Shown: positions 412 to 3,398 of the stretch, piece by piece
Position numbering within the stretch: position 1 is the first letter of the stretch
How the letters are laid out: every line of letters begins with the position of its first letter
Source: Alphaproteobacteria bacterium
GTDB lineage: Bacteria; Pseudomonadota; Alphaproteobacteria; JAAXGF01
NCBI GenBank assembly: GCA_963555825.3
Contig: CAUVXB020000001.1
Span: forward strand, 1,664,001-1,728,000
DNA: 64,000 nucleotides
Direction of reading: 5' to 3'
Translations under genes and position numbers: made by a program
Notes under the pieces: generated by a model
What the model was told of the DNA's origin: nothing
The model's input: the letters and a program-made list of their open reading frames with translations, nothing else
Databases searched by the model: none

Positions 412-675
412 GCTCTGATGAACTCGGCAATCGCAACCGGCTCCGAGATCACCGTGCCTTCAGAGACGATCTCGCCACTGCTATCGACCACGCAGATCGC
501 GTTCAGGCGGCTTACGCGGCCTTCGGCCACGGTCCGCCCTCACCCTTGAGCGACACATCCATTCCAACATTCGGTTCCATAGCTGCTCTCCTGCTCTTTC
601 GTTGCACTCGGACCGGCCCATGCCGGTCGTTGCTACATTAAGGAGAGCAGTGCCCGATCCCCGAGTTACGCCATG
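412..675 (-). pseudogene. 5' remnant of a related IS110/IS1111 element (left end and start of transposase, ATG at 580)
   Basis: Reverse complement closely matches 825-~1035; degenerate, with an ~44 nt hairpin insertion at ~500-543; cut by the IS3/IS481-like element. Confidence 0.85.
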
Positions 676-826
676 TGTAAGAACGCCGGCAAATCCCACT
701 AACAGGAGAGTGTTCGGTCAATTCTTCGAAGGTGTCCTCTGATAAGATATTGATTTTGTTGAGTTTAGAAATTCGAGAATTCAGAGAAAATCGTGCCGAT
801 AGCGCTCGGGGGCGGTTTTTACACAT
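674..826. mobile_element. MITE-like, AT-rich ~150 bp unit with inverted ends, interrupted by IS110 at both ends
   Basis: TGTGTAAGAACGCC (674-687) versus GGCGGTTTTTTACACA (811-826); right end reconstitutes to GTTTTTTACACAGCCT after removing the IS110. Confidence 0.65.
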
Positions 827-917
827 GGCGTAACTCGGGGATCGGGCACTGCTCTCCTTAATGTAGCAACGACCGGCATGGGCCGGGCGAGCACACTGAA
901 AGAGCAGGAGAGCAGCT

Positions 918-1949
918 ATGGAACTGTATGTTGGAATGGATGTATCGCTCAAGGAGACCTCGATCTGCGTGGTCGATGACAACGGCGAGATCGTGTCCGA
1001 GGGCGTGGTGATCTCGGAGCCGGCGGCAATCGCGGCGTATATCAGGACAACGGCGCCGCACGCAAAGCGCATCGGTCTGGAGACCGGTCCGACGACGACC
1101 TGGCTGTGGCATGAGCTCAGGGCGCTCGGCTTGCCGGTGATCTGCATCGATGCGCGTCATGCCAAGGCGGCGCTGTCGATGCAGATCAACAAGAGCGACC
1201 GGAACGATGCCGCCGGGATCGCGCGGATCATGCAGTGCGGTTGGTACAAGGAGGTCCAAGTCAAGAGCGTGGCGTGCCACGAGATACGGGCCGTCCTGAA
1301 CAGCCGGGCCCAGTTGGTCAAGATCAAGCGTGATCTCGAGAACCAGATCCGTGGCTTGCTCAAGAACCTCGGCCTCGTCATCGGCAAGGCGGGCGGCAAT
1401 GTCTTCCGTCGCCGGGTCGAAGAGCTGCTTGGCGGGCAGGGTCTTTTGTCGGAGGCCGTTCGGCCCCTTCTGGAAGTCCGCGAGAAGGTCGGCCGAGAGA
1501 TCGCCGCGCTCTATCGCAAGCTGCTGGGCCTGGCGCGGAACGACGAGGACAGCAGACGTTCCATGACGGTTCCAGGCATCGGGCCGATCACCGCCTTGGC
1601 CTTCCACTCGGCGATCGACGAGCCGAGCCGCTTCCGACGTTCCCGGAGTGTCGGCGCGTACATCGGGCTGACGCCGCGCCGCCATGCTTCCGGCGAGGTC
1701 GATTGGACGGGGCGGATCTCCAAATGCGGCGATCGAATGCTCAGGACCTACCTCTTCGAGGCGGCCGGCGTGCTGCTCACCCGGGTGCCGCGATGGTGCG
1801 CGCTCAAGGCCTGGGGTCACAGGTTGTGGAAACGCATCGGCTTCAAGAAGGCCAAGATCGCCGTGGCACGGAAGCTGGCGGTCATCCTCCATCGCATGTG
1901 GCGTGATGGAACGGACTTCATCTGGTCAACCAAGGAGGCGGCCGCATAG
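918..1949 (+). CDS. IS110-family DEDD recombinase/transposase (343 aa)
   Basis: YVGMDVS, GLETG, KSDRNDA (DEDD RuvC-like); TVPGIG, GLTP...SG, ISKCGD, AVARKL; RBS GGAG upstream. Confidence 0.96.
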   Translation: MELYVGMDVSLKETSICVVDDNGEIVSEGVVISEPAAIAAYIRTTAPHAKRIGLETGPTTTWLWHELRALGLPVICIDARHAKAALSMQINKSDRNDAAGIARIMQCGWYKEVQVKSVACHEIRAVLNSRAQLVKIKRDLENQIRGLLKNLGLVIGKAGGNVFRRRVEELLGGQGLLSEAVRPLLEVREKVGREIAALYRKLLGLARNDEDSRRSMTVPGIGPITALAFHSAIDEPSRFRRSRSVGAYIGLTPRRHASGEVDWTGRISKCGDRMLRTYLFEAAGVLLTRVPRWCALKAWGHRLWKRIGFKKAKIAVARKLAVILHRMWRDGTDFIWSTKEAAA

Positions 1950-1954
1950 GGAAA

Positions 1955-2160
1955 CAACGTCCAAGCATTCCGCGAGAGCGGAACCGATGTCCCTGTCGGG
2001 ACGGCGGCGTCGGCGAGATCGATCCAGGCTTTGCGATGCCTCACCGAGGCAAGCGCGCTTCACACATTGATCCGCCAACGTCCTCCAACGCCATCATGCG
2101 GAGGGCCGAGCCCCTACCGCGGAGAGAACAGTGAACCCGGCAGGTACGTCACGGAGAGCT
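1955..2160 (+). ncRNA. Putative bridge/seek RNA of the IS110 element
   Basis: Two stem-flanked internal loops carry CCAGGCT (2024-2030) and TTCACACA (2059-2066), matching the target flanks, and ACGCCAT (2088-2094) and AGAGAACA (2123-2130), matching the element ends; RNA boundaries approximate. Confidence 0.8.
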
Positions 2161-2163
2161 TGA

Positions 2164-2209
2164 CAACCAACCCCCGAGTTAGAGAACAACCAACCCCCGA
2201 GTTAGAGAA
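2164..2209 (+). repeat. Perfect 23-bp tandem duplication of the IS110 right end
   Basis: CAACCAACCCCCGAGTTAGAGAA twice, overlapped at its start by TTGACA (2160-2165). Confidence 0.95.
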
Positions 2210-2213
2210 CAGC

Positions 2214-3398
2214 CTAGTGTCCTGATCGATAAATTGATATGATTATGTCTCTATTTGTTTTTAGGAGGCGCGATTGATGGCGAGAGTGGCGGTGACGATC
2301 TCTTTGAGCGATGACGAGCGCGCCGAATTGGAGGCGCTGTCTCGTCGTCGCAAGACGTCGCAGGGGCTTGCGCGGCGGGCTCGGATCGTCTTGGCGGCGG
2401 CGGAAGGGTTGGAGAACAAGGAGATCGCCGTTCGTCTCGAGGCGAGCGCGGACACCGTGGGCAAGTGGCGTCGCCGCTATGCGGCGGAGGGCCTCGACGG
2501 TCTGTACGACGAACCCCGCCCCGGCGCGCCGCGTCAAATCGGCGATGACGCCATCGCGGAAGCGGTCCGGCTGACGCTGGAAGAGACGCCGCCGGACGCG
2601 ACCCATTGGAGCCTTCGCTCGATGGCGCGGGCGAGCGGCCACGCGCCCTCGACCATTCATCGCATCTGGCGGGCCTTCGGCTTGCAGCCGCATCGCTCGG
2701 AGACCTTCAAGCTGTCGAGCGATCCCTTCTTCGTGGAGAAGGTCCGCGACATCGTCGGTCTGTATTTGGCGCCGCCGGATCGTGCCCTGGTTCTCTGTGT
2801 CGACGAAAAGAGCCAGATCCAGGCCCTGGACCGTTCCCAGCCCCTCTTGCCGATGCGCCCCGGGCAGGCGGAGCGGCGCAGCCACGACTACAAGCGCCAC
2901 GGCACGACCTCTCTCTTCGCGGCCCTCGACATCGCCACGGGAGAGATCATCGGCAAATGTTTCCCGCGCCATCGGGCCCGAGAGTTCCGCAAATTCCTCG
3001 ACCTCGTCGAGGCGAACGTCCCTGCTGATCTCGACATCCACATCGTCATGGACAACTACGGGACCCACAAGACCAAGGCGATCCGCGACTGGTTCGCCAA
3101 ACGGCCGCGCTGGCAGGCCCATTTCACACCCACCAGCGCCTCCTGGCTGAACCAGGTCGAGCGCTGGTTCGGGCTGCTGACCGACAAGCAGATCAGGCGC
3201 GGCGTCCATCGCTCCACCAAGGAGTTGGAGCGCACCATCCTCGACTACATCGACACGACAAACCAGAACCCCAAACCCTTCAAATGGACCAAATCCGCCG
3301 ATGACATCCTCGGCGCCATCCAGCGCTTCTGCCTCCGAACAATCGAAATCGCTGAACAGCAGGCGAAAATCATGCGAACTTCGGAATCGGGACACTAG
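2214..3398 (+). mobile_element. IS630-family element, type A, copy 1; transposase CDS 2274-3398 (374 aa)
   Basis: HTH plus DEKS...DNY...LNQVE DDE; CTAG at both ends; TIR TGTCCTGAT/TCGGGACA; stop codon lies in the terminal CTAG. Confidence 0.95.

Follow-up and report, generated by a model that had tools for sequence, protein, structure and literature searches.

An IS1111-group insertion sequence with a conserved two-loop 3′ RNA region, probably guided to the terminal repeats of IS1182-family elements

Introduction

Published accounts of the IS1111 group, in the sections that bear on this work, describe insertion sequences (IS) with recombinases of 330–350 amino acids that carry the motif GL-P----S(t)G and are followed by a downstream non-coding region (PMC11187229); the elements have a short left end, a long right end, long subterminal repeats, and an RNA in the right end (PMC11208160). 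In the portion of the literature that deals with IS1111 bridge RNAs, the donor-binding nucleotides are often found in a multi-loop (Durrant et al. 2024, PMC11208160), and for ISEc11 an 82-nt seekRNA is reported to be enough for movement, with target matches alone described in the sections concerned (PMC11187229). Here, we analyze a 1.36-kb insertion sequence of the IS1111 group (IS110 family) at positions 824–2188 of a 64,000-nucleotide stretch of an alphaproteobacterial genome (contig CAUVXB020000001.1, positions 1,664,001–1,728,000), which we refer to as the window.

As far as ISEc11, ISKpn4, ISPst6 and ISPa11 are covered in the relevant sections of Siddiquee et al. 2024 (PMC11187229), the window element shares with them the size and motif of the recombinase, the subterminal repeats, the downstream non-coding region, a guide order in which the top-strand match lies 5′ of the bottom-strand match, and natural re-direction by guide replacement between relatives. 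It differs from them in its target, a terminal repeat of IS1182-family elements, and in its end sequences, and it is known here from sequence alone. With IS621, in the parts of the two reports that describe the RNA (PMC11208160; Hiraizumi et al. 2024, PMC11208158), it shares two loops with a pair of guides apiece, opposite strands being read on the two sides of a short core, as well as a serine/DEDD recombinase whose C-terminal domain can be aligned. However, the IS621 RNA lies 5′ of the gene, has the reversed guide order and uses a CT core, whereas the window element has a 3′ RNA and a common ACA, with exchange apparently at or after its C; in addition, and unlike what those parts describe for IS621, the donor loop of the window element is weakly closed and its left guide is often mismatched in the family.

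The explanation that best accounts for the locus as a whole, and to which we assign a probability of about 0.85, is an IS1111-group element in which an RNA of the 3′ non-coding region guides the recombinase to terminal repeats, those of an IS1182-family element and those of a miniature inverted-repeat transposable element (MITE) derived from it, and in which a donor loop holds the element's own ends. According to this proposal, the DEDD/serine recombinase would bind the RNA produced from that region; the 5′ segment of loop 1 (2021–2030) would pair on the right side of the insertion point, with the top strand, and the 3′ segment (2058–2066) on the left side, with the bottom strand of the flank and of the common ACA. 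The sequence thus addressed by the two guides would be TTTTTAC-ACA-GCCTGGACC, which the IS1182-family element and the ~175-bp MITE carry as their terminal inverted repeat. The second loop, with a complement of the left end and a copy of the right end, would probably hold the joined ends of an excised circle, and recombination at the common ACA would insert the element without target duplication. Replacement of the guides would be expected to reprogram the target.

Results

Recombinase and boundaries of the element

Residues 5–150 of the recombinase match PF01548 (DEDD_Tnp_IS110, E = 1.7e-16), and the C-terminal Tnp domain, which carries the GL-P----S(t)G motif, matches PF02371 (Transposase_20, E = 1.8e-22). 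Against the model NF033542, ‘IS110 family RNA-guided transposase’, the protein scores 252 bits (cut-off 140). The C-terminal half aligns with the solved recombinase of IS621 (8wt6, E = 3e-9) and with that of ISCro4; the sequence GLTPRRHASG of the window protein falls opposite GLTPRRYESG of IS621, a stretch that includes the catalytic serine S241. The family is very large and its members are close relatives of one another: the protein search placed 7,936 of 8,000 scored proteins at E = 1e-30 or better. No ISfinder-type name was obtained from the plasmid search or the protein search, and the best plasmid match (69–72% DNA identity, Bradyrhizobium plasmids) is annotated merely as ‘IS110 family transposase’. 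The gene is flanked within the element by 92 nt of non-coding sequence on the 5′ side (826–917) and 239 nt on the 3′ side (1950–2188). The initial annotation was right in essentials: by its sequence, the element is a well-behaved and unusually clear IS1111-group insertion sequence of the known RNA-guided type rather than a new kind of system, and the findings leave known principles unchanged.

The genome (6.04 Mb, two contigs) contains six full copies. For comparison we assembled 80 homologue loci with 69–90% protein identity, mostly from alphaproteobacterial genomes, and parsed the ends by the same rule; 10-bp subterminal inverted repeats with 5-nt extensions, in a layout identical to that of the window element, were found in 70 of the 80. 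Repeats of 7–17 bp with short terminal extensions are characteristic of the IS1111 group. The boundaries differ from those in the initial annotation, which placed the left CA at 825–826; these two positions read AT, and the CA is at 824–825. Its right boundary, at 2210–2211, belongs to the second of two tandem copies of the end. The true end is 2188, as shown by the other five genomic copies, in which the right end is the base equivalent to 2188 (2187–2188), and by contigs from three public runs (X15, X16 and X18), which depart from the window sequence exactly at 2188 to enter GCCTGG... flanks. All six copies are inserted in one target motif without target duplication, their junctions having just ACA in common.

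Target guides covary with the flanks

The four guide strings of the initial annotation are present where it located them: CCAGGCT at 2024–2030, TTCACACA at 2059–2066, ACGCCAT at 2088–2094 and AGAGAACA at 2123–2130. The first was drawn too short, since the 5′ target guide reaches back to 2021. We compared the guide columns with each element's own flanks in 61 distinct homologue rows, 57 of which entered a permutation test (L063, L078, L088 and L095 were dropped for indels). On average, the guides match their own flanks at 7.86 of 9 and 7.12 of 10 positions, versus 6.31 and 5.41 after permutation of the flanks, and none of 10,000 permutations reaches either value. The covariation that the initial annotation had proposed as a check is thus present for both guides of the target loop. 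It extends over 23 different guide pairs, such as TTGCAACA with AAAATCGG and TTTCGACA with AGCATCGA. The 3′ guide equals the left flank plus ACA, with TCTTCAACA, TCTGCAACA and TTATCAACA matching at 9/9 and TTTCGACA at 8/8, and the 5′ guide, once reverse-complemented, is identical to the right flank for as many as 10 nt, with 10/10 in L018 (AGCCAAGACC) and L023 (AGCCAGGGTC); in L071, AACC replaces AGCC in guide and flank alike. The window guides, GATCCAGGCT and CTTCACACA, match the usual right flank AGCCTGGACC at 9/10 and TTTACACA at 7/8, respectively, and one genomic copy has exactly TTCACACA. Loop 1 is a target loop with two flank-matching guides.

A target set by the protein, or by chance local similarity with coincidental guide-like strings, could be entertained because the strings are short: in 5000 dinucleotide shuffles of 1950–2160, each match of guide quality arose by itself in 25–110 shuffles (0.5–2.2%). 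All four jointly, however, arose in none of the 5000, and neither the guide-flank covariation nor the conserved fold described below would be expected on those terms; we regard such an origin as highly improbable.

In the public run X16, a metatranscriptome, a contig over 1992–2088 differs from the window by T>C at 2023, C>T at 2044 and C>A at 2058. Owing to the T>C change at 2023, the 5′ guide of this variant would fit the other MITE end type, GCCTGGGTC.

A conserved two-loop RNA region

We aligned 56 distinct 3′ regions of the homologue set, derived a consensus fold, and counted pairs on a 33-pair structure, leaving out the first 5′ hairpin, in which the alignment register shifts between clades. 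In the 56 sequences, 99.4% of the cells are paired, as compared with 37–51% when the partners are slid; five pairs are altered on both sides, which was reached in none of 500 shuffles. One pair of the closing stem of loop 1, 2018:2071, switches between A-U (33 sequences) and U-A (19). The 3′ non-coding region thus holds a conserved two-loop RNA structure, in agreement with the fold foreseen in the initial annotation. The inner hairpin TGCCTC/GAGGCA reported there was recovered at 2037–2051, and the strings GATCGAT (2017–2023) and ATTGATC (2066–2072) are both present, but they do not as a whole form the closing stem. The features of the element and its surroundings are listed in Table 1.

Table 1. 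Positions of the features discussed in the text (window coordinates unless prefixed C1 or C2)
Feature	Position	Strand	Basis or remark
Body of ~175-bp MITE derived from IS1182-family element, forming the left IS flank; each terminal repeat carries the target	675–823	.	Uninterrupted MITE in L098; same left flank at 4 copies; 66 motif matches
ACA common to target and IS ends, left junction	823–825	+	CA of the initial annotation = 824–825
Left end: 5-nt extension TGGCG (826–830) and subterminal inverted repeat TAACTCGGGG (831–840)	826–840	+	
Recombinase gene, 343 aa; DEDD RuvC-like domain and Tnp domain with GLTPRRHASG	918–1949	+	PF01548, PF02371, NF033542, alignment to IS621 8wt6
Two 5′ hairpins of RNA region	1968–1983, 1988–2003	+	Second 99.1% paired in 56 sequences
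Target-binding loop module	2006–2082	+	Consensus fold, pair counts, guide-flank covariation
Outer stem of target module	2006–2009 / 2079–2082	+	
Loop 1 closing stem, GGCG(A)GATC(G), A2016 bulged	2012–2015 and 2017–2021 / 2068–2076	+	
Loop 1 strands around inner stem and hairpin (2032–2057)	2022–2031, 2058–2067	+	
5′ target guide, up to 10 nt, complementary to top strand of right flank	2021–2030	+	
Loop 1 inner stem	2032–2035 / 2054–2057	+	
Loop 1 inner hairpin TGCCTC/GAGGCA	2037–2051	+	
3′ target guide, identical to left flank plus ACA	2058–2066	+	
Putative donor-binding loop	2084–2134	+	Fold; right-end guide changes with end in L102, L103
Donor loop closing, 2 bp	2084–2085 / 2133–2134	+	
Donor loop strands around inner stem (2097–2104 / 2113–2121)	2086–2096, 2122–2132	+	
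Donor loop 5′ strand: ACGCCAT, complement of left end ATGGCGT	2088–2094	+	
Donor loop 3′ strand: AGAGAACA, identical to right end	2123–2130	+	
TTGACA, near-invariant in 56 homologue sequences, outside folded RNA	2160–2165	+	T211–A214 in the numbering of the first aligned sequence are invariant columns; 18 nt before terminal GAACA
Right end: subterminal inverted repeat CCCCGAGTTA (2172–2181) and extension GAGAA (2182–2186), overlapping common ACA (2186–2188)	2172–2188	+	
Second right-end copy (nested repeat, 23 bp): tandem repeat of 2166–2188	2189–2211	+	No counterpart in the other five copies
Rest of target right flank, GCCTA, interrupted by IS630-family element	2212–2216	.	Resumes at 3396 (TA, then GACCCAGAGCGG)
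Nested repeat, 128 bp	C1:936502–936629		
Nested repeat, two further 207-bp units, each a complete RNA module	C2:1372475–1372885		
Nested repeat, 636 bp	C1:345593–346228		

The target is the terminal repeat of IS1182-family elements and their MITE

The motif TTTTTACACAGCCTGGACCC has 66 matches in the genome at up to four mismatches; an IS1182-family element and the MITE carry them as their terminal inverted repeats. The full-length target element measures ~1.7 kb and encodes a 487-residue IS1182-family transposase (451 bits). The ~175-bp MITE has the same ends; an intact example is present in L098, and empty target sites also exist. All six copies of the insertion sequence are in MITE ends, which are of one type for four copies and of the other type for two. 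In the window, a single MITE has both its ends filled: a truncated, 74%-identical relative is in one and the present copy in the other. The left flank reads ..TT(T/C)T(T/C)AC-ACA at all six copies and at this relative (415–674, other strand). The right flank is GCCTGGACCC in four copies, to which the CCAGGCT guide is 7/7 complementary, GTCTGGACCC in one, and GCCTAG in the window. The five other copies are all in the same target, in line with the natural target proposed in the initial annotation, namely the terminal inverted repeat of another element. The target sequence reconstructed there, ending in ..GCCTAG, is an altered one: GCCTAG is atypical because an IS630-family element interrupts the target, from which GCCTAGACCC follows as the original site.

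At least 60 bp upstream of 824 are common to four copies, as would be the case if the element extended further to the left and this flank belonged to it. The common flank is, however, the MITE, which occurs without the insertion sequence (in L098 and as empty ends); two copies are flanked by the other end of the MITE, and homologues in other genomes end likewise at ..ACATGG. An extended left end is accordingly very hard to sustain, and we place the boundary at the common ACA.

Insertion into the terminal repeats of another element has a reported precedent: IS4321 and IS5075, of the IS1111 family, are said to insert into the inverted repeats at the termini of Tn21-family transposons (attributed to Partridge and Hall, 2003). 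The window element resembles them in this habit and differs in that its targets are IS1182-family and MITE ends and in that guide variants track repeat variants across genomes. To sample the habit more widely, we picked 10 of the 70 parsed loci across the guide classes and tested one open frame beside each left flank. The frame encodes an IS1182-family transposase in four loci (L058, L089, L017 and L083), which have four different guide pairs; the remaining frames comprise one IS3-family transposase, one group II intron reverse transcriptase, one sulfatase-like protein, and three without a family. The lineage as a whole seems to be specialised on IS1182-type terminal repeats, with guides that track the repeat variants. 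Such an insertion sequence lineage would be a parasite of a parasite, of the kind known for IS4321 and IS5075. Within the family, the recombinase and the RNA scaffold hardly vary, and the two target guides change with the insertion site. The family thus forms a natural series for the targeting rules of IS1111-type bridge RNAs: how long the guides are (as much as 10 nt on the right), how well mismatches are tolerated, and where the crossover lies. We do not claim discrimination between MITE and IS1182 ends by base +2 of the right flank, as one copy is in a GTCTGG site.

Two neighboring insertions share the MITE of the window. The truncated relative at 415–674 (minus strand) is the left part, ~260 bp, of a diverged insertion sequence (74% identical) in the opposite terminal repeat; its junction reads TTCTTAC-ACA-TGGCG, and it is cut off beside an IS3-family remnant (rve-domain frame 2–376). 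The IS630-family element occupies 2217–3395, encodes a 374-residue transposase (2274–3398; NF033545, 280 bits), and has the ends GTGTCC../..GGGACAC, with TA at 2215–2216 and 3396–3397, the latter followed by GACCCAGAGCGG. Its insertion site is a CTAG within the MITE end, and 4 bp separate it from the duplicated right end of the IS1111-type element on its left.

The second loop and the ends of the element

The sequence of the second loop suggests that it is probably the donor-binding loop. In each of the 61 rows, its segment AGAGAAC agrees with the right end up to and including AAC, the right end being invariant in this set; the last base of the right-end guide is C, not A, in a good many rows. 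The comparison also covered distant plasmid-borne relatives, of which eight loci were fetched (L099–L106) and seven screened for ends. The ends were parsed by the same rule in L102 and L103 and roughly in L100 and L105; the end screen gave nothing interpretable for L099, L101 and L104, and L106 was read only. In L102, AGACAAC is found in both the right end and the guide. In L103, the common dinucleotide is GA, and the 3′ target guide and the right-end guide both have G there. In L100 and L105, compared by eye, AAAGGACC is found versus AAAGGGCC. The right-end guide thus changes with the end in distant relatives, which supports its assignment as the right-donor guide.

The left-end guide behaves differently. 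It matches at 7/7 in the window and in five other rows, those of its TGGCG-ended relatives, but it stays A(C/T)GCCAT while the left ends vary (TGGCG, TGGGG, TGGGA, TGGAG, TGGTG, TGGCA), and in most homologues the match is 6/7 with a G:G mismatch (ACGCCAT versus a TGGGG end). Compensating changes accompany those of the left end in two types, L029-type and L063, and are absent from L020, L078 and L085. Because the left-end guide does not track left-end variation, we rate the donor loop below the target loop. Of the four guides described as readable in the initial annotation, the pair in the target loop covaries with the flanks and the right-end guide matches everywhere, but the left-donor guide shows no covariation.

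These properties bear on the main alternative, according to which loop 1 alone would be the RNA guide, in the manner of a strict seekRNA, the protein would recognize the ends via the subterminal repeats, and the second loop would be either a DNA-level internal copy of the end to which the protein binds or a structural component of the RNA. This alternative would account for a left-end guide that does not follow the left end and for a second loop that is closed by just 2 bp in the consensus. It also draws on ISEc11, in the sections of the report concerned (PMC11187229): the 82-nt seekRNA sufficed for movement, target matches alone are described and the donor flanks had to match the target, and a donor loop may therefore not be needed in the IS1111 group. 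It does not readily explain, however, why a 7-mer and an 8-mer match to the ends are arranged in the same register as the target guides and flank a conserved, covarying inner stem, why all four matches never coincided in the 5000 shuffles, or why the right-end segment and the right end change jointly in L102 and, in part, in L103 and L100/L105. One of the two closing pairs of the loop also covaries (CG 22, UG 18, UA 15), and the weak closure fits the remark, in the part of Durrant et al. that concerns IS1111 bridge RNAs, that donor-binding nucleotides are often in a multi-loop (PMC11208160). On balance, we consider an RNA with loop 1 as its sole guide unlikely, though it deserves to be taken seriously, and favor a second loop that would hold both ends of the element.

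The plasmid-borne relatives L099–L106 (Paracoccus, Microvirga, Acidiphilium and Agrobacterium) adjoin IS3, IS6, IS5 or ISL3 transposase genes, and L100 and L105 have a common left flank beginning GGGGTCAA.., which resembles a transposon terminal repeat.

Observations that weigh against the proposed explanation

Apart from the behavior of the left-end guide and the weak closure of the donor loop, several observations weigh against the proposed explanation. First, the fit between guides and targets is imperfect: the 3′ guide of the window matches most of its own targets at just 7/8, and one of the six copies is in GTCTGG instead of GCCTGG. Second, a scan of 500–2600 against Rfam 15 at E up to 10 returned matches at chance level alone and no bridge-RNA family, and a promoter and terminator scan of 700–2300 called no promoter and a single terminator-like site, within the gene. 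Finally, contigs from RNA libraries cover 1859–2188, which is no proof of transcription, and the circle junction was not seen in the public-run contigs; these runs were available as contigs alone rather than reads, without starts or ends, and the depth of the RNA libraries cannot rank the parts of the element.

The recombinase gene is frameshifted in three of the six copies (C1:935107–936504, C2:2016856–2018220 and C2:3487052–3488416), by a 34-bp insertion at the equivalent of window position 963 in one copy and by a 2-bp deletion at 1263–1264 in two; the RNA region of these copies is unaltered, and the guide segments are identical among all six. The 2-bp deletion is also present in a contig of run X15. 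The phrase ‘intact, reprogrammable’ in the initial annotation is thus apt for the window copy in so far as its reading frame is whole, but not for half of the copies, and reprogrammability is seen as natural guide variation only.

Crossover register and a candidate junction promoter

The ACA that target and ends have in common makes a CA core and an AC core indistinguishable in cognate sites. Exceptions are provided by eight of the 70 homologue loci, whose right junction is without the usual ACA (GAGAAC-C or GAGAAC-G in seven, GAGTAAC in L039); in L094, the first base of the guide tracks the G of the right junction. These variants, together with the right-end guides that end in C, place the exchange at or just after the C of ACA. 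The evidence on the register is split, with L103 favoring the CA register of the initial annotation and L102 the other, and the CA core is accordingly one of two registers that the data allow.

The near-invariant TTGACA hexamer close to the right end (Table 1) may be the −35 element of a junction promoter, such as has been described for the family; a circle would complete the terminal GAACA to GAACAT.

Nested duplications after the right end

Four of the six copies are directly followed by a nested repeat of their own 3′ part (Table 1), and the copy followed by the two units at C2:1372475–1372885 has three RNA modules in tandem. At the duplication junctions, ..GAGAAC is joined to an internal site preceded by AC, with overlaps of AC, GAAC, ACA and ACA. 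A similar nested duplication is present in one of 69 homologue loci (L063), with the overlap AAC. At one junction, the internal site is the stretch coding for the 3′ target guide, by necessity a perfect half-target. The right boundary falls at the end of the element in every case, and this makes an event driven by the recombinase likelier than random slippage. Possible routes are: (i) a circle that inserted into a resident copy, with subsequent homologous collapse, and (ii) unequal exchange between sister copies. We tentatively add a third, which we hold to be possible rather than probable: that the duplications record a one-ended, half-site RNA-guided reaction, in which the right end was joined to a nearby AC-containing pseudo-site in the resident copy, including the DNA that encodes the 3′ guide. 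If so, the half-site reaction would be an inherent self-targeting liability of bridge RNAs, and also a natural route to tandem arrays of guide-RNA modules.

A loose parallel is offered by ISPpu9, for which the part of the report that treats these modules (PMC12288879) describes extra modules past the right end with copies of end sequences, sometimes in tandem. In ISPpu9, as described there, the module constitutes a small-RNA gene in its own right and has end boxes to itself; the repeats of the present element instead duplicate its 3′ part in nested fashion, and their inner breakpoints, at AC, vary.

We also considered whether three solo 3′ fragments elsewhere in the genome (C2:840560–840645, C2:2842351–2842537 and C1:346345–346465) might be independently moved RNA modules. 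For the latter two the idea was rejected, as both are remnants of a second, diverged IS1111-type element, the RNA region of which has an additional hairpin-like insertion of ~48 nt after the second 5′ hairpin.

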